Source: Candidatus Scalindua sp. (GTDB lineage: Bacteria > Planctomycetota > Brocadiia > Brocadiales > Scalinduaceae). Taken from it: DNA of 32,000 bases. The notes under the pieces were generated by a model. It ran no database searches. It was not told the origin of the DNA and saw nothing but the letters and a program-made list of their open reading frames with translations. Within the stretch, counting starts at the first letter, position 1. Each line of letters starts with the position of its first letter. Both the position numbers and the translations under genes were made by a program. This document shows positions 3,586 through 20,712 of the stretch, one piece after another. The stretch spans positions 3,120,001 to 3,152,000 of the forward strand of contig JALDRA010000001.1 in NCBI GenBank assembly GCA_031316235.1, in the 5' to 3' direction.

Positions 3586-3718
3586 CGAAAACCCCGCGGT
3601 TGAAGCAGGAGTGCCCGGATTCCAGGGGTGTAGATTTCGTAAACGTAACCTGCAGAGATACTTGAGGTTTCTGGAATTTTACCGCAAGGCAGCCGATTGA
3701 GGTTTGCGTTCAACCGCT
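3586..3718 (+). repeat. Intergenic repeat family 2, copy 2 (between ATPase and gspF)
   Basis: CGAAAACCCCGCGG...GATTTCGTAAACGTAAC...TACTTGAGG...CCGCAAGGCAG...GCGTTCAACCGCT is homologous by eye to 15309-15446, 28674-28805 and 1-72. The ends GCGGTTGAA (3596-3604) and TTCAACCGC (3709-3717) are a perfect 9-bp inverted repeat. Confidence 0.7.
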
Positions 3719-3725
3719 AGGTAAT

Positions 3726-5438
3726 TTAAGCTACTTCCCTCATAACCTCTTTTATTGTAGTTTGACCATTATAGATTGCATTGAGTCCGCTCTCCAGCAA
3801 AGTTTTCATACCGCTCCTTCTCGCAATTTTCCTTATTGTTTCTGTGGATGATTGTTGAATGATGTGGGAACATATCTCATCGTTAATCGTCATTATTTCA
3901 AGGATAGACAATCTGCCCTTGTAACCTGTATTGTTGCATTTACCGCAACCTTTTTCCCGATAGAACTGCTTTTTCCCTAATACCGATTCAGGGATATGAA
4001 GCTTCTTGATAATATTCCTGTCCGGCATATACTCTTCCCTGCATTCAGGGCAGAGCTTTCTCACCAGCCTCTGATTTATGACGGCCGTAAGTGAAGCGGT
4101 TATTAAATACGGTTTAACGCCCATATTGATTAATCTTGTTATCGTCGATGGTGCATCATTTGTATGTAAGGTACTTAAAACGAGATGGCCGGTAAGTGAA
4201 GCATGCATTGCAACTTCAACTGTTTCTAGATCTCTGATCTCACCCATCAGGATAATGTCCGGGTCTTGTCTCAAAATTGCTCTCAGGCTGTTGGCAAATG
4301 TAACGCCGATTTCTGAATGGATCTGTACCTGCGTGATACCATCAATGTCATATTCTACCGGATCTTCAGTCGTAATAATTTTTATTCCGGAACAGCGTAC
4401 AAAATTAAGAGCGGCATATAATGTTGTCGTTTTACCCGAGCCTGTGGGTCCTGTAACCAGGATAATACCGTATGTTTTCTTCATCAACTGTTTAATTGTG
4501 TTGAGATCCTGGTAATTTAATCCTAACTGTGTAAGATCAAGTGAAACTGAATTCTTGTCCAGTATCCGCAGGACAATACTTTCTCCATGTTTGGTAGGTA
4601 ATGTGGAGATGCGAATGTCAACATGGTGACCTCTTATTGTTACATGTGCATGGCCATCCTGAGGTACTCTCTTTTCCGCTATGTCCATGTTTCCCATCAC
4701 CTTGAGTCTTGAAACAATGCCGTTTGCAAAGTGTGGGGGGACAGGTATCTCATCAAGCAGCATACCGTCAACTCTGAAACGGACATGGAACTCATTTTCA
4801 AAGGTTTCAAAATGGATGTCGCTTGCCTTATCTGAGATTGCCTGCAAAAGTATTAAATTGACGAAACTTTTAACTGGTGCATTATCGACCAGGTCTTCAA
4901 GATCTCCAATCTCTTGAGATTCTTTGGTTTTACTCATTTTCTTTTCAGGAGTATAGTGCTCAAATGTATCCATGAGTTCTTCGATGGATTCATGTTCTCC
5001 CGGATAGTATCTATCCAGGCAGTTTGAAATCAACTCCTGCTCAGCCAGGACAGCCTTGAGATTATACTTGAGTAAGAATCTCAGGTCATCCATCTGTTCC
5101 ATATTGAGAGGTTCTTCCTGTGCTAACGAAAGGGTATACCCATCGTAAGCTATGGGAAGGACTCGATAAAGCTGCGCAATTGAAGGTGGAATCTTTTCAA
5201 TGATATCCGGTTTCAGTTCAACTCTTCTGAGGTCAACAACCTCCATGTCAAGATAATCACTTAAGGCTTCCAATATTAACTGGTGTGAGGTTACGCCGGA
5301 CTCTACTAATGTTTTCCCCAGTGACTTACCGTTAAGTTGCTGCATTTCGAGTGCTTTTTCTATCTGGATTTCATTTACCAGTCTCTTTTCCAGCAGGATC
5401 TGTCCAAATAATTTTTTTCGCACTTCCTTTATGCTCAT
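3726..5438 (-). CDS. gspE: GspE/PilB-family secretion ATPase, paralog 2 (MshEN-like N-domain with degenerate c-di-GMP motif)
   Basis: Walker A GPTGSGKTTTLYA, Asp box, Walker B ILMGEIRD, His box LVLSTLHTNDA, tetra-Cys CPEC...CGKC. The N-terminal T2SSE_N/MshEN-type fold is LFGQILLEKRLVNEIQIEKALEMQ-QLNGK-SLGKTLVESGVTSHQLILEALSDY. Confidence 0.92.
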   Translation of the reverse strand: MSIKEVRKKLFGQILLEKRLVNEIQIEKALEMQQLNGKSLGKTLVESGVTSHQLILEALSDYLDMEVVDLRRVELKPDIIEKIPPSIAQLYRVLPIAYDGYTLSLAQEEPLNMEQMDDLRFLLKYNLKAVLAEQELISNCLDRYYPGEHESIEELMDTFEHYTPEKKMSKTKESQEIGDLEDLVDNAPVKSFVNLILLQAISDKASDIHFETFENEFHVRFRVDGMLLDEIPVPPHFANGIVSRLKVMGNMDIAEKRVPQDGHAHVTIRGHHVDIRISTLPTKHGESIVLRILDKNSVSLDLTQLGLNYQDLNTIKQLMKKTYGIILVTGPTGSGKTTTLYAALNFVRCSGIKIITTEDPVEYDIDGITQVQIHSEIGVTFANSLRAILRQDPDIILMGEIRDLETVEVAMHASLTGHLVLSTLHTNDAPSTITRLINMGVKPYLITASLTAVINQRLVRKLCPECREEYMPDRNIIKKLHIPESVLGKKQFYREKGCGKCNNTGYKGRLSILEIMTINDEICSHIIQQSSTETIRKIARRSGMKTLLESGLNAIYNGQTTIKEVMREVA

Positions 5439-5447
5439 GCCTGTTCC

Positions 5448-7142
5448 TTAATCGTTTGATACTCTCTTGATCTCTTCCAGGGTTGTAATTCCGGCACGGA
5501 CCAGTCTCAATCCATCTTCCTTTAATGTTGTCATTCCTTCAGAATGAGCGATCTTTCGTAATTCGTTTGTCGGCACTTTTCTGTGAATAGCCTCCCTTAA
5601 TTCGGGAGTCAAAGACAGAAACTCAAATATCCCTACCCTTCCAAAATAACCGGTGTTGTTACAATAGTTGCATCCCTGCCCGTGAAAAGATAGTGAACCG
5701 TCAAAATCCTCTGTGGTAAACCCGAGATCATTTAAGCTCTCTTTTTCCATGTTCTGTGGGACTTTACATGAGGGGCATATGACTCTCACGAGGCGTTGAG
5801 CCAGTATTGCGTTAATGGATGCTGATAAGAGAAAGGGTTTTATTCCCATTTCAGTCAGCCGTGTTATCGCTGAAGGGGCATCATTTGTATGGAGTGTGCT
5901 TAATACAAGGTGTCCTGTTAATGATGTTGAAACGGCTATTTCTGCTGTCTCAATATCACGTATTTCACCAACAACTATCACGTTTGGGTCTTGACGGAGC
6001 ATGGAACGCAGGATTTTAGAAAAAGTCAGTCCTACCTTTTCTTTAACTTCACACTGATTAATTCCTCTCAGATCATATTCTATAGGATCTTCCACGGTAA
6101 TTATTTTATATTGTTTCGGATTGATTTCATTTATGGCCGCATAGAGCGTGGTCGTTTTTCCGCTACCGGTAGGACCGGTGATCAAAATGATACCGTTCGG
6201 CCTGCTTAATAACTCTTTTACATGGCGGTGATTATGTTCTGAAAGACCGACATTATTCAGTTGAATGAGTGAAGATGATTTATCCAATAACCTCATTGTA
6301 ATACTTTCGCCGCATGTGGAAGGTATGGTACTGACCCTGATATCAGTCTGCTTTCCTTCAACATTTACTGAGATTCTCCCATCCTGGGGTTTTCTTGTTT
6401 CGGTTATGTCCATATTTGAGAGTATCTTTATCCTGCAGACCAACGCCTCATGTACGTTTTTCGTAATAGTATGCATATCATGACATACACCATCAATCCG
6501 GAATCGTATATTAATATTAGTCGACAACGGTTCAATATGTATGTCGCTGGTTCTCGTCTTGACAGCCTCTTTAAAAATATGCATGACAAGTCTCACAATG
6601 GGTGATTCCGAATCATCCAGCCCCTCAGCACCGAAGTGGCTATTCTGGGAGGCCTTGAGCGCTAACCCCTTGAGATCATTGCAGATATCTCCTAGCATGA
6701 GTTCCGTATTCTTTTCATAGTATTTCTTTATGGCGTTCTCAATATTATCGCTCGTTGCCAGAACACACTCTATGTCATAATCAAGGATAAAACGCAGGTT
6801 TTCCTGGGTGTTAATATCAAGCGGGTCGCTTGTTGCCACAATAAGAAGCCCATTTTGTCTTGCAATAGGTATGATATTATATTGTTTTACGATATCTTTT
6901 TTAATAATGTTTATAACGTCATCGGGAATAGCGATAGCCAGAGGATCAACAACTTTATAATCAAACTGTTCCGCAAGACAATTGGTAATATGTTCAGCGT
7001 TAGCAAAGCCCATCTTTATTATCACATCACCCAATCTGGCAGACAGCATCTTCTGTTGCTCCAATGCCTTATCCAGCTGTTCCTGGGTAATAAATCCCTT
7101 TTCTTTCAGTATTTGTCCGATTGCTTTTCGTGTGGTCTTCAT
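5448..7142 (-). CDS. gspE: GspE/PilB/MshE-family secretion ATPase, paralog 1 (well-conserved MshEN c-di-GMP-binding motif; motif 2 fully canonical)
   Basis: Walker A GPTGSGKTTTLYA, VVGEIRD, LVLSTLHTNDA, CPSC...CNYC. The N-terminus is AIGQILKEKGFITQEQLDKALEQQ-KMLSA-RLGDVIIKMGFANAEHITNCLAEQ, i.e. two 24-residue RLGxx(L/I)(L/I)xxG(L/F)(L/I)xxxxLxxxLxxQ-type motifs separated by 5 residues. Confidence 0.92.
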   Translation of the reverse strand: MKTTRKAIGQILKEKGFITQEQLDKALEQQKMLSARLGDVIIKMGFANAEHITNCLAEQFDYKVVDPLAIAIPDDVINIIKKDIVKQYNIIPIARQNGLLIVATSDPLDINTQENLRFILDYDIECVLATSDNIENAIKKYYEKNTELMLGDICNDLKGLALKASQNSHFGAEGLDDSESPIVRLVMHIFKEAVKTRTSDIHIEPLSTNINIRFRIDGVCHDMHTITKNVHEALVCRIKILSNMDITETRKPQDGRISVNVEGKQTDIRVSTIPSTCGESITMRLLDKSSSLIQLNNVGLSEHNHRHVKELLSRPNGIILITGPTGSGKTTTLYAAINEINPKQYKIITVEDPIEYDLRGINQCEVKEKVGLTFSKILRSMLRQDPNVIVVGEIRDIETAEIAVSTSLTGHLVLSTLHTNDAPSAITRLTEMGIKPFLLSASINAILAQRLVRVICPSCKVPQNMEKESLNDLGFTTEDFDGSLSFHGQGCNYCNNTGYFGRVGIFEFLSLTPELREAIHRKVPTNELRKIAHSEGMTTLKEDGLRLVRAGITTLEEIKRVSND

Positions 7143-7208
7143 TTCGATACAAGTATACCCCTGGCTGCAGGATTAATCTGAAGGACATATTTGATGATTG
7201 TGCGTTGG

Positions 7209-7323
7209 TATACTAAAACCGATTTGGTTTTCGGTTTTACCGGCAACCAAATCCTGGTTGCAGTTATACTCGCTCAATTTTATCTCGGATTTTATCCGAA
7301 AACCATTGTAAGATGAGTATAAT
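7209..7323 (+). repeat. Intergenic repeat family 1, copy B (short form)
   Basis: TATACTAAAACCGATTTGGTTTTCGGTTTTACCGGCAACCAAATCCTGGTTGCAGTTATACTCGCTCAATTTTATCTCGGATTTTATCCGAAAACCATTGTAAGATGAGTATAAT. Lies 66 nt upstream of the first ATPase gene (opposite strand). Confidence 0.9.
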
Positions 7324-7571
7324 ACAGAATTAACCTCTCTTTCCACCTCTCTCAATGGTACAGGAGACGTTCCTTTATTATTCTGGAGAAGAGAAGAGTC
7401 GTTATGAGTTCAAAAGATTTCAACGAATGGATCCGCCTGCAATCCCTGTTTTGTGTTCCCGGGTGAATATTTTTCTCTCCAGAAGTACTATCGGCTGATC
7501 TGCAGGTTTTTTATACATATAATTTTTCTTGGTGACATGAATGGGAACGGCAAAAGATAACCAAAATATTC

Positions 7572-7712
7572 AATTACCCTCATATCATGATGGTTTTTCG
7601 GAAAAAATCCGGGGAAAAACGGAGAGAGTAAAGTCCTCGGCGCCTGGTTTGTCCGGGGATACCTGCAATCAGGCGGTTAGAAAAATCTAAAAGCAAATCG
7701 GTTTTAGTATAC
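7572..7712 (-). repeat. Intergenic repeat family 1, copy G (long form, inverted relative to copy B)
   Basis: The reverse complement reads GTATACTAAAACCGATTTGCTTTT...GGTATCCCCGGACAAACCAGGCGCCGAGGACTTTACTCTCTCCGTTTTTCCCCGGATTTTTTCCGAAAAACC...GAGGGTAATT. Its outer 19 nt are identical to the outer 19 nt of copy B. Confidence 0.85.
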
Positions 7713-7991
7713 TTGATTTCCCGGTCTCGGGAGGAGATGAGTCTATACCGGTGCAGGATAAAAGGTTCAAGGGTAAGGTCTCAGAAAAAACAGCCCGGTA
7801 TTCACTCCTGTCCCCGCCGGAAATATTGTCTCCCGCCCGGAAGAATCAGTTCGGCAGCCACCATCCGCCGGCCGCTCGGCCCGATCTGATCTTCCAGACC
7901 TGGTAAAAGCAATTTGCAGGGAATAGAGAAGCGGGAATCTAGAGTTTTGTCCATTTCTCTGTTTCGAGGTAATTCGAATGACAATCGGGAA

Positions 7992-8909
7992 TTAATGAAC
8001 GATAACCCTGTTTTTCCCCTGGGTTTTTGCCTGGTAAAGCACGGTATCTGCAGCCGTAATCAGAAATTCAGGGGAGCTGTTTTCCTGCGGGGTGTCAGGG
8101 GTAAACCCTGCCAGCCCGAAACTTGCCGTAACCTGTATCTCTTTCTCCTCAATTCTCATGGTTTTTTGAGCAATATTTTCGCAGATCCTTTTTGCTAAAA
8201 AGGAGGCACCCTCGATTCCTATTTCCGGAAGGACAAGTAAAAACTCTTCGCCTCCGTAACGGACAAGCCAGTCCAGGCCTTGCCTGATAGTGTCGTTTAT
8301 CGTTTGAGCAAAAAGTATTAATACCTGATCTCCGGTTACGTGCCCGTGCGTATCGTTAATTTTCTTGAAATTATCTATGTCACACATGATAATCGACAGC
8401 GAATGTCTGTATCTCCTCGCTCTTTTGATCTCATTGTTTAGATGTGCATTCATATAGGTACGGTTGAAGCATCCGGTAAGAGCATCGGTTATCGATAATC
8501 TCAGATTCTTTTTATCGTGTTCCCGTTCCAGCAGAGACTGTTTATTATATTCAATTCCATCATTAATTGCCGCAATGAGGGTTTTTGGATCGCAGGGTTT
8601 GGTCAGAAACCGAAAGATGTTTCCCTGGTTTACTGCATCTATGGCTTTCTGGAGTTCGGCCTTGCCGGTAAGGATTATGCATGCACAGTCAGGATTTATC
8701 TCCTTGACAGAGGAGAGGAACTGGAGCCCGTTCATGACCGGCATCTGGAGGTCGGAAACAACAACAGAAAAAACCCCGTCGTTGGCAACTTTTGTCAACC
8801 CCTGTTCACTTCCAAGGGCGGTATCGATGCTGAATAATTTTTTCAGCATACGTTTGTATGACATTAATATGTTTGGCTCGTCATCCACAAAAAGAACTTT
8901 ATCATTCAT
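7992..8909 (-). CDS. Response-regulator diguanylate cyclase (REC-GGDEF, PleD/WspR-like)
   Basis: REC: VLFVDDEPN...VVVSDLQMPVMNG...ILTGK...FLTKP. GGDEF: active-site RYGGEEF, preceded by RQGLD (not a canonical RxxD I-site). AAAGGGAG precedes two ATGs (8915, 8909) and spacing favours 8909. The maximal ORF runs to 9002. Confidence 0.9.
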   Translation of the reverse strand: MNDKVLFVDDEPNILMSYKRMLKKLFSIDTALGSEQGLTKVANDGVFSVVVSDLQMPVMNGLQFLSSVKEINPDCACIILTGKAELQKAIDAVNQGNIFRFLTKPCDPKTLIAAINDGIEYNKQSLLEREHDKKNLRLSITDALTGCFNRTYMNAHLNNEIKRARRYRHSLSIIMCDIDNFKKINDTHGHVTGDQVLILFAQTINDTIRQGLDWLVRYGGEEFLLVLPEIGIEGASFLAKRICENIAQKTMRIEEKEIQVTASFGLAGFTPDTPQENSSPEFLITAADTVLYQAKTQGKNRVIVH

Positions 8910-9142
8910 CGGCATCTCCCTTTTTTTATAACGTATGCTGTTCCCCAATTTTGAAAAAAATATCTCTCTCGTGTTAAAATTATGCCTTTCGATTGCAGCC
9001 ACTTATTCACGGTTACCATCCCTTCCCGATAATGAACCTGTGGAGGACGGAAACACACATCAGTGAGGCAGCAAATATTTTGTTCCTGCTTCAGGATACC
9101 TACCCTTTAAAATGATACTGACCGGACTGCTGTAAGCAGAAA

Positions 9143-9781
9143 TCAATCTCCCGGAGCCGATAAGCTTTCTTCTGCTTTTAAAAGAAAGCCGGAAAGAATT
9201 GCCTTCGTGTCAATATCCATATGAATAAATTCTATGCCCAGACCTATATCTTCAGTGTTTGTGCTTATGTTTTTCTGTATTGATGGTATGGTCAGTTCGT
9301 TCTTCATGCCGGGCAACTTGAAGAGTATGGTGAATTCGCCTACCGTCTCTATTGAGGTAATGCAGTGTGCAATCTTTGAAAGATCTGCAATAAAATGGCA
9401 TCCTTTTTTGCTAATATCGGTAATGCTCCCCTCTATTAAATTGCCTGAAATTTTTACCTGAGCAGGCAGATGGCAGCTGATTCTCTTGTTGCTTCGCAGG
9501 CCAAAGTTCTCAAATCTGGTCGGATAATCAATAAAGATCAGGTGTGCCGGATTGGTAATAAAGCCGAGTATGCGGGAACTGAAGCCAAAGATAGTGCCTT
9601 TATGGCGGTATTTAACACTAATCCCGTTTCCTCTGTATAATATGTTTGCCGTAAGTCCCAGCTCATACAAAGGTGGCATCTTGAGAATCACATATTCTCC
9701 TTCCTCCATTCCGACGAGTTCGGTTGTCAGCTGTGCTTCAACGCCATTTACCTGGATTCCCATTAAGGTACCTATATTCAT
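9143..9781 (-). CDS. PilZ-domain c-di-GMP receptor (YcgR-like N-domain + PilZ)
   Basis: Canonical PilZ motifs RSNKR (RxxxR) and DISKKG (D/NxSxxG) about 25 residues apart, with a ~100-aa N-terminal beta-barrel-like domain. Confidence 0.8.
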   Translation of the reverse strand: MNIGTLMGIQVNGVEAQLTTELVGMEEGEYVILKMPPLYELGLTANILYRGNGISVKYRHKGTIFGFSSRILGFITNPAHLIFIDYPTRFENFGLRSNKRISCHLPAQVKISGNLIEGSITDISKKGCHFIADLSKIAHCITSIETVGEFTILFKLPGMKNELTIPSIQKNISTNTEDIGLGIEFIHMDIDTKAILSGFLLKAEESLSAPGD

Positions 9782-10168
9782 AATTTATGTCTGCTCCTTT
9801 TTCAAATCCTTCATGCAGCTGTTAGAATCCATTATTCAGAATCCAGAATAGAAGTTGAGCATGGTTCATGTATGAGTTGGCTCAAGTAGCTTACTTATCT
9901 CTTCAAGTTGTACATACTACCTTTCCTCCCGAACGTAGCAGTTCCAGCCCCCGTCCGAACAGATTCATCCGGGCGGTGCGGGCGGGTAGTATTTTGCTTT
10001 AACGCAGAGGCGCGGAGGACGCAGAGCTTATGCCGCAAAGCTTATATCAAGCTGCGACTGAAAGGAAATTTACTCTAATTTGCTGACTACCCGGCAAATC
10101 GCATCGCATAATAAATAATGTTTTCAATTCATAATTCTGAAATCCAAAATCTCAATTCTTCATATTAT

Positions 10169-12094
10169 TTACATCCCATTTGCTGCTAAAACCTTATTTA
10201 GGTCATTTGTTTTCAGTGAAGGTGTACCGGCAATGACCTGGCCTAAAATATCCAGTGACAATGGAGAATTAAGAACAAGGATATCCTTATACTCTCTGGA
10301 TGTCATGAGTGTAGCATTGTTTATCATAGTATCAAGAACTTCATCTGATAATGGACTATTGTTTTGCATGGTCCACTCAAAGGACATCATTATTGTACCT
10401 TCATTTATTGCTGCAATAAGTACATTGTCAGACAATGGGTTATTACTCGCTAAGTTTAAGATATTTTCATTGTCACCGGAAGACAATGAAGGATTTCGGT
10501 TTATCATTGCGATCAGTACGGCATCTGATAGCGGCGATTCGCTAACAAGATAATTTGCAACATCAGATGAACTATTTGCCGGGTTATTGATGAAGTCTAT
10601 TAGTGCCTGATCATTAGAGTCAGGGGTAGCAGAACTACAGTCATCATCAATTCCATTGCCGGGTATCTCGGCTATACTGGGGTTGACAGCTGGATTGGCA
10701 TCATCACAGTCACCCTGGTTCCCGGTAAATCCGTCACCGTCATTGTCTATATCGAGAAGACTGTCTGGGGTTGCAGAGCTGCAGTCATCATCGATTCCGT
10801 TACCGGGTATCTCGGCTATACTGGGGTTGACGGCTGGATTGGCATCATCACAGTCACCCTGGTTCCCGGTAAATCCGTCACCGTCATTGTCTATATCGAG
10901 AAGACTGTCTGGGGTTGCAGAGCTGCAGTCATCATCGATTCCGTTGCCGGGTATCTCGGCTATACTGGGGTTGACGGCTGGATTGGCATCATCGCAGTCA
11001 CCCTGGATCTCGGTAAATCCATCACCGTCATCATCTGTATTGAGAAGGCTGTCTGGAGTGGCCGGGTTACAGTCATCATCTTTCCCGTTATCAGGTATCT
11101 CTGCCATAGCGGGGTTGACGGCCGGGTTGCCGTCATCGCAGTCACCCTGGTTTCCCGTAAACCCGTCACCATCATTGTCTTCACCCTCATCAGGATCCTC
11201 TATGGTGGCAGTCGTTCTGCCGTCAATGGACAACTCCAGCGCTGCGCCGTTATTTCTGTCCAGGACATCAACCGTTCCCGTTATCAGGGTGACGGTAGTG
11301 GCCCTGTTTGCATTAACCGTCCCGACCGTAAACCGGGTGCCCCGTACCCCGATAATGGCACTCGGTGTTACCACCTCGAATTTAGAGCCTGCCGTAACCT
11401 GGATATCGATTGTCCCCTCGTCTTCAACCCGTATGATGCTGTAGAGTGTCCCGTCTGCCAGCCGAACCGACTGGACGAGGTATGTCCCGTATCCCGACTG
11501 GGAGTCGGTGATGGTCACCCTGCTTCCGTCTGAGAAGACCATTTCATCATTTATGCTGCCTATGGTTCTCTCGGCAGAGGTACCGTCGGGCGGTATCTCC
11601 TGGCCGTTAACGAGTACGGTATCGATATTGGTGATATTGGTTGCACCTGCACCGAAGAGATTTGTGGCTTTTTTCGCCTCCCTGTGGTGGGGACATCCGA
11701 TGATGAGTTTGTCAACATCGTAGGGGTCCTTTCGTGCCACATAATAGGGGTCATAGCTTGCAAAGCTGGCGGTGCTGACCGGGTTGTCGTCTTCGGGGCA
11801 GAAAAAGGTCTTTTTTTCCGGCACATAGCGGGCAAGTTCGGCAGAGAGGGGGAGGGTATCATTGGAGTCATCCGGGTAGCCGTCCTTCGGGAATTTTCCG
11901 TGTTCGTTATAGTAGATCTGCATACCCAGGGAAATCTGTCTCAGGTTGCTCATGCATGCAGTCTGGTGAAATGCAGTGCGTTCCTTGAGGATGGCAACCG
12001 TTGCAATGCCGGCCACTATCGCTACGATGGTCATCGTGATCATGATTTCGATGAGCGAGAACCCTTTTTTAGCGCCGGAGAATATGTTTTTCAT
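10169..12094 (-). CDS. Giant chimeric pseudopilin: prepilin/DUF1559-like N-terminus + FecR-like domain + 4 Asp/Cys-rich repeats + C-terminal PLSDxVL repeats
   Basis: MKNIFSGAKKG|FSLIEIMITMTIVAIVAG prepilin motif. CMSNLRQISLGMQIYYNEHGKFP and FFCPEDD resemble planctomycete DUF1559 pseudopilins. VVTPSAIIGVRGTRFTVGT is FecR-like. There are 4 copies of D(N/D)DGDGFTxxQGDCDDxNPAVNPxxAEIPxNGxDDDCxxATPDS and 4 copies of (S/N)xPLSDxVLxxxIN. Confidence 0.85.
   Translation of the reverse strand: MKNIFSGAKKGFSLIEIMITMTIVAIVAGIATVAILKERTAFHQTACMSNLRQISLGMQIYYNEHGKFPKDGYPDDSNDTLPLSAELARYVPEKKTFFCPEDDNPVSTASFASYDPYYVARKDPYDVDKLIIGCPHHREAKKATNLFGAGATNITNIDTVLVNGQEIPPDGTSAERTIGSINDEMVFSDGSRVTITDSQSGYGTYLVQSVRLADGTLYSIIRVEDEGTIDIQVTAGSKFEVVTPSAIIGVRGTRFTVGTVNANRATTVTLITGTVDVLDRNNGAALELSIDGRTTATIEDPDEGEDNDGDGFTGNQGDCDDGNPAVNPAMAEIPDNGKDDDCNPATPDSLLNTDDDGDGFTEIQGDCDDANPAVNPSIAEIPGNGIDDDCSSATPDSLLDIDNDGDGFTGNQGDCDDANPAVNPSIAEIPGNGIDDDCSSATPDSLLDIDNDGDGFTGNQGDCDDANPAVNPSIAEIPGNGIDDDCSSATPDSNDQALIDFINNPANSSSDVANYLVSESPLSDAVLIAMINRNPSLSSGDNENILNLASNNPLSDNVLIAAINEGTIMMSFEWTMQNNSPLSDEVLDTMINNATLMTSREYKDILVLNSPLSLDILGQVIAGTPSLKTNDLNKVLAANGM
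10616..11179 (-). repeat. Tandem 144-bp coding repeat (4 copies) inside the giant pseudopilin gene
   Basis: The CCGGGTATCTCGG anchor recurs at 10659, 10803 and 10947 (and a diverged CAGGTATCTC at ~11092), a period of exactly 144 bp. Copies 10659-10802 and 10803-10946 differ at only 2 positions by my reading. Confidence 0.95.
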
Positions 12095-12696
12095 TATGAT
12101 AACTCACGTTACTATCCCTTGTTTTGAGAAGTACGATTTGAGATTTATTTTGATGTTTTTAATGAAGCAGTAAATAAAGAAATCAACTCATCTGCTTCTT
12201 TAATCAGATCAATTCATATCTTTTTAATACCAGAATCGTAAATAATAATTTTCAGATCTTTGATCATGAAGTAGAGAAATAAAAAAGCAAGAATCGTGCC
12301 TTTTAGAAATAAAACCCGCTACCAGTGGTCGTATTCCAGATCTCCGGGGTAACATATCGATGGGAGGCCGCCATATAAAGAGGACCGGTTACAGCTAACT
12401 CTTTACTGAATAAGGACGCTCTCGCCGGATCATCCACTACCCTGCAGAATTTTTGTAAACCTCCCATTATCGGTGTAAAAGGGGGAGCAATTACGTTTTT
12501 TATCAAAAAGCATTTATTTGCCCGGATTTGTATAATATTTCAACGATTATCTTGACCGCTACAGGGAGTATTAAATGGTTAATTCTGCTTGAGGGGAAGA
12601 ACAAACGGAAAATAACCCAGAAGACCCTATTTTTTTGCAGGTTCAGCCGATAATGCTACGTATACTCATCTTGTGCCGCACTTCCCGCTTGAAGAG

Positions 12697-13323
12697 ATGA
12701 ATAGAAAAAAAAGTAAAGGAAAAAGTATTATCAATCAGACAACCCAGTTATTAACGGCTTTATTCTTCTTCCTTGGAGTAGCAGTTACTCCCGTCCATGC
12801 AGAAAACCTGATAGATGAGGGTTTTGAGTCAGGGTGGGGTGGATGGAGTGCTGATTGCGGAGTCTGGGAGATAGGTCTGCCCAGATCAGGGCCCGGATAC
12901 AGCCACGATGGTTCTCTGTGTGCCGGTACGGCCCTCGATGGAAACTATCCTAATAATACAGACAGCCGATTAATCAGTCCGGCAATCACTCTTCCATCTG
13001 TTGCGGATCACGAAGAAATCTATCTCGAATTCTGGCACTGGTTTTCTTATCTTAATAACCCGTTTTCTGATGATAAGGGGTATGTGCAGATAAAAGTCTA
13101 CTATAGTGAAACGGGGAAGTGGTCAGACTGGACAACTCTTGGGAGTACAATAAAGAATACCTCCTCAGTCTGGACATTGAGAAAAGAGGATCTTACGAGA
13201 TATTCCGGGAAAAAGATACAGATAGCCTTTTATCATAGAGTTGATGATGTGTATACATCAACCGGCTGGTATATTGACAATATTGAGATTTCCGGGCCGG
13301 GTGCCTCTTCCCCTGCTTTCTGA
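12697..13323 (+). CDS. Small secreted protein with MAM/'choice-of-anchor J'-like beta-sandwich domain
   Basis: Signal peptide MNRKKSKGKSIINQTTQLLTALFFFLGVAVTPVHA|ENL. The domain pattern EGFESGWGGWS...W..G.P..GP...DGNYPNNTDSRLISP.ITLP...LEFWHWF...GYVQIKV...W...IQIAFY...TGWYIDNIEISG is typical of that family. The ORF is open from the GTG at 12673 but the ATG at 12697 is preferred. Confidence 0.7.
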   Translation: MNRKKSKGKSIINQTTQLLTALFFFLGVAVTPVHAENLIDEGFESGWGGWSADCGVWEIGLPRSGPGYSHDGSLCAGTALDGNYPNNTDSRLISPAITLPSVADHEEIYLEFWHWFSYLNNPFSDDKGYVQIKVYYSETGKWSDWTTLGSTIKNTSSVWTLRKEDLTRYSGKKIQIAFYHRVDDVYTSTGWYIDNIEISGPGASSPAF

Positions 13324-13465
13324 TATGCGAAAACCGATCTGGTTTTATCTGTTTCTAAAAGCCAAAGCCTGGTTAAAGGTATCCCCGGACAAAAAGCGCC
13401 GAGGACTTTCCCCGGTTCGTTTTTTCTCGGATTGTATCCGAAATCCAGTATGAGATGAGTATAAA
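13324..13465 (+). repeat. Intergenic repeat family 1, copy C (long form)
   Basis: ATATGCGAAAACCGATCTGGTTTTATCTG...GGTATCCCCGGACAAAAAGCGCCGAGGACTTTCCCCGGTTCGTTTTTTCTCGGATTGTATCCGAAATCCAGTATGAGATGAGTATAAA. Starts on the base after the TGA stop of the 12697-13323 gene. Confidence 0.9.
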
Positions 13466-13523
13466 CACCGTATGGGATGGAGGGGAGGAACACGGGAGAT
13501 TTATCGAGTTTTCCGGGTAAATC

Positions 13524-15278
13524 TCAAATTGGACATACCCTGTTTCTCCCGCTGTTTTTGGCCTGATAGAGACCTTTATCGGCCCGTACAATAAATCTCT
13601 CACCTGTTTCATACCCATCATGGTATTCAGCAACACCAAAACTCGCCGTTACCCTATGGGGTGTTCTGTGATCTCCGAGATAAAATCGATACTGCTCAAT
13701 GGATTTGCGGATTTTATCTGCAATCTTGACGGCATTGTCACGGTTTGTGCCGGGCAGCATGAGAATGAATTCTTCACCTCCATAACGGCAGGCAACGTCG
13801 AGTGTCCGGCTTATAGTGCGTAATATCCTGGACACCGTACATAACACTTCGTCTCCCGCTGCGTGCCCGAAGCTGTCATTAATCTTTTTAAAGAAATCCA
13901 GGTCAAACATGATAACCGAAAGATCTTTATTTCTACGGAGTTTTACACTCTTGATCTCGGCATTGAGCATTAATTTGAAATGACCAATATTGTAGAGACC
14001 GGTCATATTGTCTTTCGTTGCCAGGTTCGTGAGTCTTCTTTTTTCAATCGTAACAATAATTTGATGATAAACCGTTAAGGCAAAAGAGCTGAAAAAAATG
14101 AGAATCAACGGATAAACAAGGCTGATGATTACATTACCATAGGCAAACAGGACTACGGAAGTAATTGTATAACTCAAGGCAAGCGCGATAATGAGAAGAA
14201 GAGTGTTAAAATATCCAAAACGCTGAGTAATGAGAAAAATCAGCCCGCTCAGGCACCAGATTATCAGGAGATTTTCAAAATCACCGGTGGTGCTCAGGAA
14301 TTCTCTTTGAAGGAGGGAATTGGTAACCGTTGCATTGATGCCCACTGAAGGATAGGCGGGTTCCAGAGGGATGGAACGGATATCATGGAGCCCTGTCGCC
14401 GTAACACCTACAATACAGAGTGAATCTTTAAACATCTCCATCGGTATCAGGGTTTTCCGGCCCTGCAACCATTGAGAATAGGCAACCATGACATCATTGT
14501 AGGATAGGTGAGAAAAAGTTTCCGTCCACCTGCCGGCCCAGTTAATGATCATATCACCCTCTTTTGTCAAAGGGATTTTCAGGGGCTTTTCGCCTGGTAG
14601 GGGAACCTGGAGAAAATTGCTGCCGGTTTTCATATCCTCTGGATCAATACCGTAGTAATCGAGTGCCAGCACCAGGCCAAGCTGGTAATAACTCCGGTTT
14701 TTGTACTGAACTCTGAGCTTGATTCTGCGAACTAGGCCATCGCTGTCTGGTTGAACGCTAATGTGCCCTTCCGTTTTAGCGGCATTCTCAAACAGGGGAA
14801 TGGGTTGGATAATATTATTCCCCCTTATTGCGTGTAAATCCTGAAAAGCAACAGGCAGGTACACGTTTCCCGCTTCTTTCATGCCTTGTGCAAACACGGT
14901 ATCTGATTCATCCGTAGAAGTTTCAGGAAAAAGGATATCGAAGGCAAGGGCCTTAACCCCCCAATCTGACATCGCTTTCGTTAATGCGGCATGTCTTTCA
15001 CGGTTCCAGGGCCACCTTCCCAGCTCTTTGATACTGTCTTCTGCAATTTCAATAATAATGATTTTTGGATGAACAGGAAGAGTTGTCCTGTATTTGAAGC
15101 GTTGATCCAGGCTCATATTCTCTACCGTATCAAATGTTCCGGCAAGATAAAAAAATGTTGAAATTGCAGCAACGAGGAGTACAACGAAAATCTTTGAAAC
15201 GAACAGGTTTTCCTCACGCATCAAGTAGCTCTTTACGTGTATAAAAAATCTTCCAATAGGCAGGAGGAATTTTGGCAT
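13524..15278 (-). CDS. CHASE2-sensor diguanylate cyclase (CHASE2-TM-GGDEF)
   Basis: N-terminal TM, then a periplasmic CHASE2-type region (ELGRWPWNRERHAALTKAM...ALAFDILF...HISVQPDSDGLVRRIKL), 3-4 TM helices, and GGDEF with RYGGEEF and an intact RTLD I-site 5 residues upstream. The alternative start M20 is at 15221. Confidence 0.88.
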   Translation of the reverse strand: MPKFLLPIGRFFIHVKSYLMREENLFVSKIFVVLLVAAISTFFYLAGTFDTVENMSLDQRFKYRTTLPVHPKIIIIEIAEDSIKELGRWPWNRERHAALTKAMSDWGVKALAFDILFPETSTDESDTVFAQGMKEAGNVYLPVAFQDLHAIRGNNIIQPIPLFENAAKTEGHISVQPDSDGLVRRIKLRVQYKNRSYYQLGLVLALDYYGIDPEDMKTGSNFLQVPLPGEKPLKIPLTKEGDMIINWAGRWTETFSHLSYNDVMVAYSQWLQGRKTLIPMEMFKDSLCIVGVTATGLHDIRSIPLEPAYPSVGINATVTNSLLQREFLSTTGDFENLLIIWCLSGLIFLITQRFGYFNTLLLIIALALSYTITSVVLFAYGNVIISLVYPLILIFFSSFALTVYHQIIVTIEKRRLTNLATKDNMTGLYNIGHFKLMLNAEIKSVKLRRNKDLSVIMFDLDFFKKINDSFGHAAGDEVLCTVSRILRTISRTLDVACRYGGEEFILMLPGTNRDNAVKIADKIRKSIEQYRFYLGDHRTPHRVTASFGVAEYHDGYETGERFIVRADKGLYQAKNSGRNRVCPI

Positions 15279-15308
15279 TCTTTAAATTTCCTTATCTAGT
15301 GCCTGATC

Positions 15309-15446
15309 GGAAACCCTGTGGTAGAACAAAAACTCCACGGATTCAAGGCGCGCTGATCTCGTAAACGGAACGTATCGATGTGCGTGAGTATTACGTCACT
15401 CTTACTGCAGCAGAGCAGAGGGGTAGTTTTTGTCTGGTCACCAGCC
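15309..15446 (+). repeat. Intergenic repeat family 2, copy 4
   Basis: GGAAACCCTGTGGTAGAACAAAAACTCC...GCTGATCTCGTAAACGGAACGTATCGATGTGCGTGAGTATTACGT...GCAGCAGAGCAGAGGGGTAGTTTTTGTCTGGTCACCAGCC is collinear by eye with 28674-28805, 3586-3718 and 1-72. Confidence 0.7.
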
Positions 15447-15554
15447 AGGTTAACCGTTTGATCACAAATTACTTCCCGGGTTCTTTGAATACTCACAATA
15501 AGATTGCATGTCTGACTGCCCGTTCTCATGCAACAGGATTGTTCCACATGATAG

Positions 15555-15722
15555 ATATACGAAAACCGATCTGGTTTTATCTGTCTCTAAAAACAAAAGC
15601 CTGGTTACTGGTATCCCCGGACAAAAAACACCGACGACTTTCCCCGGACCAGGTGCCGAGGACTTTACTCGCTCCGTTTTTTCCCGGATTGTATCCGAAA
15701 TTCAGTATAAGATGAGTAGAGT
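15555..15722 (+). repeat. Intergenic repeat family 1, copy D (long form with two internal cassettes, degenerate 3' end)
   Basis: ATATACGAAAACCGATCTGGTTTTATCTG...GGTAT[CCCCGGACAAAAAACACCGACGACTTT][CCCCGGACCAGGTGCCGAGGACTTT]ACTCGCTCCGTTTTTTCCCGGATTGTATCCGAAATTCAGTATAAGATGAGTAGAGT. Confidence 0.88.
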
Positions 15723-15813
15723 AGAGAGGTATCCATCTTGAAGAAATAACAAAGAGACGGGTTACCATCTGTCAGGTGTACTAGTGAACAGCAATAGGTA
15801 TGCCCATTTTGCA

Positions 15814-15927
15814 TATACTGCAACCAAATCTTGGCTGCTGGTATCCCCTGACAGAAAACTCCGAGGACTTTACCCGCTCAATTTTTTCCCGGATTGTATC
15901 CGAAATCCAGTATGAGATGAGTATAAT
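15814..15927 (+). repeat. Intergenic repeat family 1, copy E (lacks the 5' hairpin module, has one cassette)
   Basis: TATACTGCAACCAAATCTTGGCTGCTGGTAT[CCCCTGACAGAAAACTCCGAGGACTTT]ACCCGCTCAATTTTTTCCCGGATTGTATCCGAAATCCAGTATGAGATGAGTATAAT. Confidence 0.88.
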
Positions 15928-16205
15928 TGACTGCTTAACGGGATGGGGAGGGTGATTCACCATTGATGCAGTGAGTGAGCGGGACAATTTTTCACTCTCC
16001 TGTTTTTTTTTAATAATTTTCATGCATGAATTTGTATAATTTTACAACGATGGTGTTTAAATTTTCGGTAAGAGCGGTGATTGAGTTCCCGTCTTATCAG
16101 GTGACATACTGGTACGGAAGGAAATCTCCTGTCATGAGATGGGGAGCTCTCAATGGAAACTTACCCTGCTGGATGATCGTACGGTGAGCGCGCAGATTTT
16201 TGAAG

Positions 16206-16232
16206 AAAAATATCTCTCTTCTTCGAAGAGAT
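16206..16232 (-). terminator. Candidate intrinsic terminator downstream of the HD-GYP gene
   Basis: On the minus strand: TCTCTTC-GAA-GAAGAGA (7-bp stem, 16215-16221/16225-16231), then GATATTTTT. Lies 26 nt after the stop at 16258-16260. Confidence 0.45.
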
Positions 16233-16257
16233 GCAGGTATGATTTCCCGGGAAGAAC

Positions 16258-18726
16258 CTACACCTTTATGGGAATGGCTGTTTCTGATTTGTCATGCGGC
16301 TCTATTATACGGTTTTCAGGGCATTGATTAATAGAGGTGAGGAAAATTGCTGCAAGTTTCGGATCAAACTGGGTCCCTGCACCCCTTTCAATTTCCTGGC
16401 AGGCTATTTCCATCGAGAGTCCCTTTCTATAAACCCTGTCTGATGTCATTGCGTCATAGGCATCGGCAATTGAGATGATCCTTGCTATCAGATGGATATC
16501 ATCCCCCTTTAAACCATCAGGATACCCCTTGCCATCATACCGTTCATGGTGGTTGCGTACACCGGGCATCAGGACACTTAATCGGGACATCGGTTCCAGA
16601 ATTTTGCTCCCCTTCAGGGGGTGTGATTGTATTATTTCAAATTCTTTCGCTGATAGACGGCCCGGTTTATTTAAAATATCACCACTGATTCCAATTTTTC
16701 CAATATCATGAATAGTGGAAGAGAGCTCTATAAATTCCAGTTCTCCCGGTGTCAGACCCAGCTCCCTTCCAATCCCGACACTGTATCCGGCCACCCGCTT
16801 CGAATGTCCATGGGTATAGGAGTCTCTTGCATCAAGGGCTGTCGAAATTGATTTGATATAATCAAGGAAGATGGAGTGAATACTGTTATTGAGCTGATGA
16901 TTTTCGATTGCGATGGCAATCTGATGAGTGAATGAAGAGAGTACTCTCAGTTCTTCAGAGGTAAATTTTGACAAGGGTGAAAATGCTGAAGTTGGCTTGT
17001 TGCAGAGGAAAAGGGTCCCTATGATCTGTCTTCTCAAAAATATTGGGACACAGAATACACTCCGTATAGCTGTCTGTAGCAGTGACAAATCGGGATGAAT
17101 AGAGAGATCATCAATCCAGACAGGCTTTTCATCGGAGAGAATCCAGGTATTTACCACGTCTGCTATTCTGTCTAATTCTTCTCTGGTTCCATGAAGAGCT
17201 GTTGCGGTAGAGTGTTTAAAACATTGTGTATCTCCATCCAGGGTATAGAGTGCGACCATTTCACAGCGGGTTGTTTTTTTTATAGGATCTAAAAAACCTG
17301 ATGGCAGTGTTGATGAAACGGTGAGCGCAGAAGTGATCCTGACATCTTCCTGAAAGCGTTGTAAAGAATACTCATCAGGTTCATGGGTAGATGTCGTGAT
17401 CTCTCCGACCTCAAGAAGCATGTTTAATTCAAGTTCTCTCATGGCCGATTCTTTGTTGGCAACACTGAGATTGACAGCCAGACAGGCACCGGTATTCATC
17501 AAAAGCATTGTTACGAACGGCATCATTTCAATCATTAAATTTGCTTTTTGAAATAAGAACAGACTGGTAAATGCAACAATTCCTGAGAGTAAAAACAGGA
17601 ACAAAAGACCGCCTGCAAGGAGAGAATAGGTACTGCCCCGTATGCGTATCCTGAAAATGAGTATGCTCAGGAGTATTGATACACCCACGATGATGGATAT
17701 AATGGTGTAAGACTGAGGTACCCGGATGAAATTTTCCGTCAACAGGTTGTAAAGGATGTTTGCATGCAGGAATATTCCGAATTTACGTTCAAAGGGTGTA
17801 ACATGAATGTCCTGTTCCGCACCTGGTGAGGTAATACCAAAGAGAACAATTTTGTCTTTGAAGTGGTCGGCGGGGAGCCTGTTTTCATTTTGTAACGATA
17901 CGTCTGAAAATGAGTATAAGGTGATAGGTTTCTCTTTTCCTATCTTATCCAGCCATTGAACGCTGTTTTGCTGGTATAAATTAATGTATTTTTCAAAATC
18001 TATATAATTAATCGGCAAACAACTATTTTTGTCAAGGGGTATCGTTAATTCACCTATTCTGAAATGATTTCCATGATATGACTGGATTTCAGGTTCAATC
18101 CCCTTTGATTCGAGAAATGCGGAAAGGGCGAAAGGGAGAAAACGTTTCCTGCCGTCTGCACTCGATATTTGAAGGGGTATCCTTCTTGCAACTCCGTCAC
18201 TATCATAAAATACGTTTAAGTGGCCTGTTCTTTTTGTCGAGTCGGAGAGTAATTTTATATTTTCAATTATTTTTCCCTTGTAAATGCCATTTTCAGGCCT
18301 TGTTCTGAAAAGATTAACCGTTGGACTCCATATAGGGAAGATAGTCATATCAGCGTTAATGGCAGCTTCTGATAAAGCGGTATCGTTCTCTGGATTTTCA
18401 CTATCCTGGAGGTCGAAAAACATATCAAAGGCAATAACACTGGCGCCGCCTTTTTTTAAATAGTCTACCAATTCTGCATAACGGCTTCTTGGCCAGGGCA
18501 GATGGCCGAACAGTTGCATATCTTCATCCGTAATGCCAATTACTGCTATTTTTGGCACATCGAGTCTCTTTTTGACGCTATTATTTCTGAGACGCCAGTC
18601 GTACAAGATTTTTTCCGGCTTATCAAAGATTCCGGTAAAGGATAACAAGGATATGATTGCCGTGACCGTTAACCCCCACAGGAAACCATGGAAGTTTTGT
18701 TTTATAAAAGGCTTAACATTAAGCAT
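16258..18726 (-). CDS. CHASE2-sensor c-di-GMP phosphodiesterase (CHASE2-TM-GAF-HD-GYP)
   Basis: CHASE2 region (FGHLPWPRSRYAELVDYL...VIAFDMFF...HLNVFYDSDGVARRIPL), a block of TM helices, a GAF-like middle domain, and a C-terminal HD-GYP (HGHSKRV...HDIGKIG...HHERYDGKGYPDGL). Confidence 0.88.
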   Translation of the reverse strand: MLNVKPFIKQNFHGFLWGLTVTAIISLLSFTGIFDKPEKILYDWRLRNNSVKKRLDVPKIAVIGITDEDMQLFGHLPWPRSRYAELVDYLKKGGASVIAFDMFFDLQDSENPENDTALSEAAINADMTIFPIWSPTVNLFRTRPENGIYKGKIIENIKLLSDSTKRTGHLNVFYDSDGVARRIPLQISSADGRKRFLPFALSAFLESKGIEPEIQSYHGNHFRIGELTIPLDKNSCLPINYIDFEKYINLYQQNSVQWLDKIGKEKPITLYSFSDVSLQNENRLPADHFKDKIVLFGITSPGAEQDIHVTPFERKFGIFLHANILYNLLTENFIRVPQSYTIISIIVGVSILLSILIFRIRIRGSTYSLLAGGLLFLFLLSGIVAFTSLFLFQKANLMIEMMPFVTMLLMNTGACLAVNLSVANKESAMRELELNMLLEVGEITTSTHEPDEYSLQRFQEDVRITSALTVSSTLPSGFLDPIKKTTRCEMVALYTLDGDTQCFKHSTATALHGTREELDRIADVVNTWILSDEKPVWIDDLSIHPDLSLLQTAIRSVFCVPIFLRRQIIGTLFLCNKPTSAFSPLSKFTSEELRVLSSFTHQIAIAIENHQLNNSIHSIFLDYIKSISTALDARDSYTHGHSKRVAGYSVGIGRELGLTPGELEFIELSSTIHDIGKIGISGDILNKPGRLSAKEFEIIQSHPLKGSKILEPMSRLSVLMPGVRNHHERYDGKGYPDGLKGDDIHLIARIISIADAYDAMTSDRVYRKGLSMEIACQEIERGAGTQFDPKLAAIFLTSINQCPENRIIEPHDKSETAIPIKV

Positions 18727-18801
18727 GGCATTGCATCTGATTCATTATTTCAGTTCAAAAAATGATGCACAGAAAAACTCTGATGAGAGCAAATGGTAGT
18801 A

Positions 18802-19420: not shown

Positions 19421-20710
<1,290 letters not shown>

Positions 20711-20712
20711 CT

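Follow-up and report, generated by a model that had tools for sequence, protein, structure and literature searches.

Cyclic di-GMP genes associated with a type IV filament gene cluster in Candidatus Scalindua

Genes of the filament machine and of c-di-GMP turnover

The window analyzed here, a 32-kb (32,000-nt) stretch of DNA from Candidatus Scalindua, an anammox member of the Planctomycetota, carries genes of a pseudopilus system interspersed with genes whose products are predicted to make, degrade, or bind c-di-GMP (cyclic dimeric guanosine monophosphate). They lie in a run of minus-strand genes (window 71-18726), and plus-strand housekeeping genes begin at 19436. An original prediction, made from the sequence alone, had named five minus-strand c-di-GMP genes and had assigned the DNA to a genome of the Planctomycetes-Verrucomicrobia-Chlamydiae (PVC) type. 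Both statements were borne out, as all five are intact minus-strand open reading frames (ORFs) with Pfam matches above cut-offs, and a profile hidden Markov model check of each protein recovered every named domain at its coordinates. The PilZ, HD-GYP, and ATPase proteins match those of a metagenome-assembled Candidatus Scalindua genome with 100% identity. The domain calls given below are those of Pfam at its curated cut-offs, and the NCBIfam/TIGRFAM equivalog cut-offs were used for naming the machine.

The motor is represented by two GspE/PilB-family ATPases encoded in tandem on the minus strand, namely ATPase2 (564 aa; 5448-7142; T2SSE 442 bits, PF05157 65.8 bits) and, only 9 nt downstream of it, ATPase1 (570 aa; 3726-5438; same Pfam architecture, PF05157 69.2 bits), which the original prediction had not listed. 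The two proteins are 40% identical, and each has Walker A and B, the His box, and the Zn-binding CxxC pairs (tetracysteine) in intact form. Further along the same strand are a GspF/PilC platform protein of 414 aa (2264-3508; two T2SSF matches; TIGR02120 371 bits, under the cut-off of 424), two GspG-like pseudopilins, and a GspH-like minor pseudopilin of 157 aa (71-544; GspH and N_methyl). The first GspG-like gene (G', 1308-2177; N_methyl and T2SSG) was called as an ORF of 289 aa. As the prepilin motif GFTLVE occurs only at residue 96, translation probably begins at Met73 (near 1961); the resulting protein of about 217 aa would be similar in length to the orthologues of 214-219 aa (the full range of orthologues is 214-261 aa). 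The second (G, 881-1336; 151 aa; T2SSG and N_methyl; TIGR01710 64 bits) is the GspG-like major pseudopilin. Beyond the left end of the window, contig L016 adds a 234-aa N_methyl prepilin, a GspJ-like protein, and an 803-aa lamin-tail (LTD) protein with a GspK-like C-terminus.

Components of the GspE, F, G, H, I, J, and K types were all matched in Pfam or NCBIfam, below the equivalog cut-offs. The PilB and GspE models give the ATPases nearly the same scores, and naming the machine a type II secretion system (T2SS) or a type IV pilus (T4P) was rejected, because both ATPases lie under the equivalog cut-offs for PilB and for GspE. Neither the GspD and GspC/L/M proteins of type II secretion nor the PilM/N/O/P/Q and PilT proteins of type IVa pili were found within the roughly 36 kb of DNA covered (the 32-kb window and 4.8 kb beyond its left end); both ATPases are of the PilB/GspE type. 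The earlier description of a T2SS/T4P-like pseudopilus machine holds for the ATPases, GspF, and the pseudopilins, but the set is incomplete as either system, with no secretin or alignment complex in that DNA. Judged by its genes, the machine is a predicted type IV filament (pseudopilus) system whose subtype is not assignable from the scores. It shares GspE, F, G, H, J, and K-like components with the classical T2SS (Gsp), and several of its pilins have sub-threshold matches to proteins A, C, and D of the "Verru_Chthon cassette," a set of pilin-like proteins of PVC bacteria. Unlike the classical T2SS, it has a tandem-duplicated ATPase and giant pseudopilins, and GspC, D, L, and M were not found in the 36 kb.

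The giant pseudopilin encoded in the window (641 aa; 10169-12094, minus strand; Pfam/NCBIfam N_methyl, FecR, and four MopE matches) has the leader G|FSLIE. Its MopE metal-binding repeats are encoded by four tandem 144-nt units at 10475-11180, which are up to 95% identical, and its FecR-like domain has weak similarity to leptospiral surface adhesins. Relatives occur as one to five paralogues per genome, with lengths of 544-952 aa; in one relative genome, genes for 23S rRNA intervening-sequence proteins stand between these paralogues. From these features, the giant pseudopilins look like displayed adhesins rather than structural pilins. This gene had been reported as interleaved with the c-di-GMP genes together with that of a secreted protein, and both are present, the latter on the plus strand (12673-13323). 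The secreted protein is of the choice-of-anchor J/MAM-like type (NCBIfam NF038128 53.5 bits, cut-off 30; weak Pfam InhA-like_MAM match), with a signal-like N-terminus read in the translation, and its orthologue in locus L019 is 72% identical and keeps position and orientation.

Two diguanylate cyclases are encoded on the minus strand. One, of 305 aa (7992-8909), joins a response-regulator receiver (REC) to a GGDEF domain, and its start is taken as the ATG at 8909 because the orthologues are 305 aa long; the other, of 584 aa (13524-15278), joins CHASE2 to GGDEF. The two GGDEF domains score 153.9 and 152.6 bits, and both proteins carry the GGEEF motif, as had been read, along with the DxD metal site, present as DID and DLD ahead of FKKIND, as expected of active GGDEF domains. 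The RTLD inhibitory site (I-site) reported for the CHASE2-GGDEF cyclase is a canonical RxxD exactly 5 residues before GGEEF; in the orthologue in L019, which is 80% identical and in the same position, it reads RSLD. The REC-GGDEF protein has no RxxD I-site, its RQGLD, like RKGLD or RKDLD in orthologues, being RxxxD. Its receiver has the acidic pocket DD, the phospho-acceptor context SDLQMP, and the conserved Lys, all kept with GGEEF in the orthologues.

The predicted phosphodiesterase (822 aa; 16258-18726, minus strand) combines CHASE2, GAF, and HD-GYP domains (Pfam CHASE2, GAF, HD/HD_5). The motifs HDIGK and HHERYDGKGYP, both of which had been announced, are read in the translation and occur together in 42 of 45 homologues, the remaining three being shorter sequences (464-645 aa). 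HD-GYP membership is further indicated by the HD motif with HHExh(D/N)GxGYP and by full-length alignment to PmGH (4mcw) and V-cGAP3 (5z7c). CHASE2-HD and GAF-HD-GYP combinations have already been catalogued, and the same survey reports that no HD-GYP protein with an extracytoplasmic sensor has been characterized experimentally (bioRxiv 10.1101/2021.11.05.467447). The Scalindua protein shares its full HD-GYP motif set with the one-component phosphodiesterases of the PmGH-type GAF-HD-GYP and CHASE2-HD-GYP kinds, but it unites the three domains in one chain and is tied to a pseudopilus cluster.

The substrate of this enzyme may be questioned, as its best solved relative is the cyclic GMP-AMP (cGAMP)-specific V-cGAP3 of V. 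cholerae (E=3.5e-47), and some HD-GYP domains hydrolyze cGAMP (bioRxiv 10.1101/2021.11.05.467447). If the Scalindua enzyme acted on 3'3'-cGAMP, or worked mainly through protein-protein contacts, as RpfG does when it regulates pili through catalysis-independent contacts (PMC3749722), the conserved partner of the cluster would not be a c-di-GMP eraser. This explanation appears very improbable. No cGAMP synthase is found nearby, GGDEF cyclases accompany the HD-GYP gene in both lineages described in the next section, and the second-best match, PmGH, is a c-di-GMP enzyme with the same motifs.

The last member of the c-di-GMP group is a 212-aa protein of the PilZN-PilZ (YcgR/PlzD-type) receptor class (9143-9781, minus strand; PilZNR 50 bits, PilZ, PF07238, 35.9 bits). 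Both motifs that had been reported, RSNKR and DISKKG, were read and agree with the canonical RxxxR and (D/N)xSxxG; among 20 homologues R100, D122, S124, and G127 do not vary, and R96 hardly does. The two-domain layout and the motifs are common to YcgR and PlzD (VCA0042), and VCA0042/PlzD is the nearest solved structure. Yet this similarity is very weak (E about 7e-5), and the Scalindua gene lies inside a pseudopilus cluster, not beside flagellar motor genes.

Conservation of the gene neighborhood in two layers

Four GGDEF, HD-GYP, or PilZ genes stand within 10.7 kb of the window, and tblastn found no further one in another 116 kb or so of Scalindua sequence, made up of L009-L013, L023, and the window's right part. 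The latter is a rough and biased sample of background gene density; synteny is the stronger evidence. The synteny data indicate that the c-di-GMP genes stand beside the pseudopilus cluster more than by chance, in two layers, a deep one and a shallow one.

The shallow layer comprises four genomes (06c2e644, AMX11, SCAELEC01, and RBC_AMX3) with 72-90% protein identity to the window. All four keep the block giant pseudopilin-PilZ-REC-GGDEF-ATPase2-ATPase1-GspF-G'-G-H, and in loci L003, L004, L005, and L006 the PilZ gene sits between the giant pseudopilin and REC-GGDEF, as in the window. In 06c2e644, the HD-GYP-anchored locus L019 (contig 1976051-1998519) overlaps the PilZ locus L003 (1996704-2017342), and the combined order is purA, CHASE2-GAF-HD-GYP, CHASE2-GGDEF, the opposite-strand MAM-like gene, five FecR/MopE paralogues, PilZ, REC-GGDEF, and the ATPases. 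This is the order of the window stretched by paralogue expansion. The overlap also disposed of the suggestion, derived from 10-kb flanks of PilZ orthologues, that the CHASE2 genes are not syntenic. Neighborhood conservation, the check that had been proposed for the coupling, was found: one genome, with proteins 72-89% identical, repeats the entire order between purA and the pseudopilins, and the HD-GYP linkage recurs in every orthologous locus examined.

The upstream side of the cluster is more variable. In RBC_AMX3 (L006 630-6832), flgH-flgI-flgN-flgK-flgL-fliW abut the giant pseudopilin gene and the CHASE2 pair is not adjacent, and in AMX11 transposases lie on the upstream side. The core block thus stayed in place, and transposases, a flagellar cluster, or the expansion of paralogues rearranged what lies upstream of it.

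The deep layer consists of more distant Scalindua, whose ATPase2 orthologues are 58-62% identical to that of the window. In L021, L022, L024, and L025 (and partially in L026), the CHASE2-GAF-HD-GYP gene is followed by a pseudopilin, both ATPases, GspF, G, G, H, I, J, and the K-like/LTD gene. L020 and L027 are variants in which genes without a family match are inserted after the HD-GYP gene; in L020 a secretin and then a giant pseudopilin follow. The L020 insert (12700-21237) holds five ORFs without a family match, a 574-aa protein resembling WxL-interacting proteins, the secretin (550 aa), and an alanine-zipper lipoprotein. In another planctomycete (L029), whose HD-GYP protein is 39% identical, a giant-pseudopilin-like gene begins 39 nt after the HD-GYP gene. 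Pseudopilus genes thus follow the HD-GYP gene in all ten orthologous loci with downstream sequence (the window, L019-L022, L024-L027, and L029). The outer flanks of the HD-GYP gene differ, with purA in the window and L019, and a sigma54 activator and cheR in L022, L024, and L025. On this evidence the CHASE2-GAF-HD-GYP protein is the most deeply conserved of the cluster's predicted c-di-GMP partners.

The PilZ, 305-aa REC-GGDEF, and CHASE2-GGDEF genes are not in the distant Scalindua clusters. Because of this, and because PilZ lies elsewhere in those genomes, the PilZ/REC-GGDEF pair and the CHASE2-GGDEF/MAM-like pair are taken as additions made in the subclade of the window. The marine Scalindua have other genes in their stead. 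An ORF of 116-123 aa, here called mini-MshEN, stands directly upstream of ATPase2 in four loci (L021 6960-7331; L022 9100-9456; L024 about 14042-14410; L025 about 13877-14245). The encoded protein is built from four MshEN-like motifs of 24 residues, spaced 5 residues apart (NCBIfam NF053729 100 bits, cut-off 38); Arg or Lys stands at position 1 of the first motif only. An in-frame stop interrupts the L022 copy, and the ORF is intact in the other three loci. The gene is absent from the clade of the window, where tblastn matched only ATPase N-termini, weakly. Between mini-MshEN and ATPase2, a conserved and extremely basic ORF of 73-82 aa (L021 7447-7668; L022 9585-9833) shows a twin-arginine-like RRxFLKKLL motif and a hydrophobic stretch, with no family match.

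The marine clusters also have a gene for a sigma54 enhancer-binding protein just upstream of HD-GYP and, beside these two, a divergent cheR-cheB-REC-REC-GGDEF set (L020 4830-8046; L022 163-3366; L024 5367-8547; L025 5198-8405), which is similar to the end portion of a Wsp-like chemosensory system. In both lineages, therefore, the same motor has a reader gene of c-di-GMP type and a REC-type cyclase at its side, and the proteins are not homologous. Among the comparative arguments for a functional coupling this is the best, and it suggests that parts were exchanged under continued c-di-GMP control. A paralogous Scalindua cluster (L023), which has tandem ATPases, GspF, GspH, and PpdB and PilX-like pilins, lacks adjacent c-di-GMP genes, so that the association is specific to the window-type cluster.

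Candidate readers and the proposed control of the machine

ATPases of the MshE and PilB types bind c-di-GMP (PMC5013675), and the original prediction had called the N-terminal domain of ATPase2 MshEN-type and c-di-GMP-binding. The fold family, that of MshE residues 1-145, stands: the GSPII/T2SSE_N domain of ATPase2 is matched by MshE (5htl) over residues 4-142 with E=2e-18. Both proteins also have the two-motif, 53-residue layout (24 residues, a 5-residue spacer, and 24 residues), at aa 7-30 and 36-59 in ATPase2 and aa 10-33 and 39-62 in ATPase1, and both pass NF053729 (c-di-GMP_motif, cut-off 38), with 59.1 bits (aa 8-59) and 45.5 bits, respectively. The same arrangement, a GspE/PilB-family ATPase with an N-terminal GSPII domain and two 24-residue motifs separated by 5 residues, is that of V. 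cholerae MshE, P. aeruginosa PA14_29490, and c-di-GMP-binding PilB (PMC5013675). The Pfam "MshEN" match was rejected as evidence of binding, as it covers residues 60-144 while the binding residues are 1-60.

The binding motif itself, RLGxx(L/V/I)(L/V/I)xxG(L/V/I)(L/V/I)xxxxLxxxLxxQ, or its relaxed version beginning with [RKPN] (PMC5013675), does not occur as a tandem in either ATPase. Motif I of ATPase2, AIGQILKEKGFITQEQLDKALEQQ (AIGQILKEKGFI...Q; AIG..LK..), has Ala at position 1 and Lys at the hydrophobic position 7 and fails both patterns, and motif II, RLGDVIIKMGFANAEHITNCLAEQ (RLGDVII..G..Q), passes the relaxed one; Leu2, Gly3, Gly10, Leu17, Leu21, and Gln24 are kept in both motifs. ATPase1 fails in both motifs, with Leu and Ser at the two Arg positions, Gly10 replaced by Arg, and Gln24 by Tyr. 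In comparison with MshE, therefore, the Scalindua ATPases deviate at position 1 as well as at other positions. The deviations, including those at the Arg positions, are kept in all orthologues of the ATPases, and a tandem match to the relaxed pattern was seen in only one of 120 ATPase2 homologues. Because Ala, Leu, or Ser stands where Arg is required, c-di-GMP binding is uncertain for ATPase2 and unlikely for ATPase1, as judged from the motifs; it may have been lost as in the GSPII-A domain of Thermus PilF (PMC12002112). The earlier idea of a complete c-di-GMP circuit is accordingly sustained for the enzymes, which have intact catalytic motifs, and for PilZ, but not for the ATPase reader, whose motif is incomplete. 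PilZ is thus the sole predicted reader with canonical motifs.

One consequence could be that c-di-GMP control is real but bypasses the GSPII domains of the ATPases, which would be blind to the nucleotide and serve for contacts only, leaving PilZ here and mini-MshEN in the marine lineages as the sole readers. The consistent substitutions at the Arg positions and the scarcity of the tandem relaxed motif point in this direction, as does the finding on PilF GSPII-A, in which binding was abolished by a Ser in place of the motif II Arg (PMC12002112). On the other hand, both N-termini exceed the NF053729 cut-off, ATPase2 retains six other motif positions in both motifs and the exact 5-residue spacer, and mutation of Arg9 in MshE lowered the affinity by fivefold at most (PMC5013675). 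Moreover, mini-MshEN shows the same loss of Arg and by this logic would be equally blind. A bypass of this kind is a serious possibility to which we would assign somewhat less than even odds.

The two ATPases are always encoded in tandem, and in the paralogous cluster (L023 10001-13423) such a pair, of 563 and 572 aa, recurs beside another set of pilins. The recurrence suggests that they work as a unit, possibly as a heteromer.

Considering these data together, we propose that Scalindua possesses a type IV filament machine of its own, that c-di-GMP controls it locally through a dedicated circuit, and that PilZN-PilZ is the main reader, and we give this reading a probability of about 0.55. The domain content, the intact motifs, and the conserved linkage are observed; that the ligand is bound, which proteins touch, in which direction control acts, and that adhesion results are inferred. 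The machine would consist of the two tandem GspE/PilB-type ATPases, GspF, the G/G'/H/I/J/K-like pseudopilins, and the FecR-like/MopE giant pseudopilins. The CHASE2-GAF-HD-GYP membrane sensor, its ancient partner, would lower c-di-GMP, and in the lineage of the window the level would be raised by CHASE2-GGDEF, subject to product inhibition through the RxxD I-site, and by REC-GGDEF upon phosphorylation by a kinase; the CHASE2 sensors and the GAF domain would set the activities of phosphodiesterase and cyclase. PilZN-PilZ would bind c-di-GMP and act on the tandem ATPases or on GspF, and the ATPase N-domains, relatives of the MshE sensor without the key arginines, would bind weakly or not at all. 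High c-di-GMP would then promote assembly and surface display of the adhesin-like pseudopilins and, in turn, attachment or aggregation, as for MSHA and PilB-driven pili elsewhere, and the HD-GYP enzyme would reverse this display.

[quoted passage not shown] The Xanthomonas campestris complex, which controls pilus motility, comprises RpfG, GGDEF proteins, the PilZ protein XC_2249, and PilT/PilU, the same four kinds of players on one filament motor (PMC3749722). There, however, the genes are scattered, the input is REC phosphorylation via diffusible signal factor (DSF) and RpfC, and the targets are retraction ATPases (PMC3749722), whereas in Scalindua the genes are adjacent, the inputs would be CHASE2, GAF, and REC, and the motor comprises two assembly-type GspE/PilB paralogues, with no PilT in the DNA covered.

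Several observations weigh against the proposed control. The whole case is built from sequence rather than from experiment. The position-1 Arg is missing in motif I of ATPase2, in both motifs of ATPase1, and in three of the four mini-MshEN motifs, and the closest solved HD-GYP match, being cGAMP-specific, makes the predicted preference for c-di-GMP uncertain. No secretin, GspC/L/M, PilMNOPQ, PilT, or prepilin peptidase was found in the 36 kb. The genes do not form one operon, and the large gaps between them hold dispersed repeats. PilZN-PilZ is also the architecture of flagellar brakes, and Scalindua carries flagellar genes. Finally, more distant Scalindua have their PilZ orthologues away from the cluster, beside unrelated genes; that from the L022 assembly is on another contig, beside SIR2 and a GDSL lipase.

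The last three of these points bear on a different explanation, in which the neighborhood hides no dedicated circuit: the enzymes would feed a global c-di-GMP pool, PilZN-PilZ would be a YcgR-type flagellar brake, and the pseudopilus genes would merely be adjacent. NCBI annotates the PilZ protein as a "flagellar brake protein," its nearest solved relative is the YcgR-like PlzD, and flagellar genes abut the cluster in RBC_AMX3. We nevertheless consider this explanation unlikely, because in five genomes, regardless of the upstream genes, PilZ keeps its place between the giant pseudopilin and REC-GGDEF/ATPase2, and the HD-GYP gene is tied to pseudopilus genes in ten of ten loci, down to 39% identity. 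In addition, the marine lineages have another c-di-GMP-motif protein at the same position.

An extension of the proposed local control to the whole genus is more tentative and, in our estimation, rather doubtful. It holds that one filament machine has been kept under hard-wired local c-di-GMP control while reader and writer were swapped for non-homologous parts, the reader being PilZN-PilZ in one lineage and mini-MshEN in the other, and the writer REC-GGDEF with CHASE2-GGDEF versus the CheR/CheB-linked REC-REC-GGDEF. If such a swap did occur, the arginine-less MshEN motifs in the ATPases and in the mini-protein would represent a functional variant of the binding mode, and display of a giant metal-binding adhesin would set the switch between aggregated and planktonic states in anammox bacteria.

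Control of pili and secretion ATPases by c-di-GMP is well known in proteobacteria, and the individual parts described here are likewise known. Anammox Planctomycetes cannot be grown in pure culture, and their aggregation governs the performance of wastewater reactors. Such control has not been described for them, and no description of c-di-GMP or pili in Scalindua was found in the literature. What is new is the predicted hard-wired arrangement in anammox Planctomycetes with its conserved CHASE2-GAF-HD-GYP partner, the tandem assembly ATPases with arginine-less MshEN motifs, and the apparent exchange of reader and writer modules between lineages. The locus supplies candidates for such control, namely a CHASE2-GAF-HD-GYP sensor from a class without a characterized member, a canonical PilZ protein, and tandem ATPases with a natural arginine-less MshEN variant. 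In the apparent exchange of readers, nature has run an experiment that bears on the kinds of c-di-GMP receptor able to serve one and the same motor.

Gene spacing, repeats, and neighboring genes

The cluster had been described as one operon, a view that was not upheld. Minus-strand gaps measure 979 nt between HD-GYP and CHASE2-GGDEF, 387 nt between the giant pseudopilin and PilZ, 233 nt between PilZ and REC-GGDEF, 849 nt between REC-GGDEF and ATPase2, 217 nt between ATPase1 and GspF, and 336 nt between GspG and GspH. Tight coupling is limited to ATPase2/ATPase1 (9 nt) and to the overlapping G'/G pair. Because of these large gaps, several of which hold dispersed repeats, and because the secreted-protein gene, which separates CHASE2-GGDEF from the giant pseudopilin, runs on the opposite strand, the cluster is not a single operon.

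The dispersed intergenic repeat is 115-160 nt long and is present in seven copies in 19 kb, five on the plus strand (599-714, 7209-7323, 13322-13464, 15554-15721, and 15824-15928) and two on the minus strand (7596-7712 and 18801-18917). Copies lie in four of the six gaps listed, downstream of CHASE2-GGDEF, and upstream of HD-GYP. The ends of the repeat are conserved and hairpin-forming (GATATACTAAAACCGATTTGGTTTT... and ...CTCGGATTnTATCCGAAATCCAGTATGAGATGAGTATAAT), and short-read contigs of the same organism end at these repeats. No Rfam match was obtained for the repeat, and a search for riboswitches, including the c-di-GMP riboswitch, gave no Rfam family at gathering thresholds or at E<=1. 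In consensus scans, terminator-like sites were not above chance and sigma70-like sites were uninformative.

A pattern search gave a candidate sigma54-type promoter-like element (GG-N10-GC, GGCATACCTATTGCT; 15790-15805, minus strand) upstream of CHASE2-GGDEF. It is kept in L019 as GGCATACATATTGCT (L019 13090-13104), 195 nt upstream of the orthologue; in the window, a repeat copy stands between the element and the ATG of CHASE2-GGDEF. The sigma54 consensus as a whole occurs at chance level and is conserved in the relative only at this site. A one-mismatch site upstream of the giant pseudopilin (12286-12301) was rejected, as it is not conserved. A similar sigma54-type element follows the HD-GYP gene in L020 (12558-12572).

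The plus-strand housekeeping genes that begin at 19436 comprise purA, uppS, cdsA, phoH, ybeY, recO, a YfiO-like gene, lptE, and folP, and further cdaA, a YbbR gene, pdxJ, dapA, and folE. Among them, 8 kb from the c-di-GMP genes, is a c-di-AMP (cyclic dimeric adenosine monophosphate) synthase pair (26830-28641, plus strand), whose members are a DAC domain protein of the CdaA type and a YbbR/CdaR-like protein.

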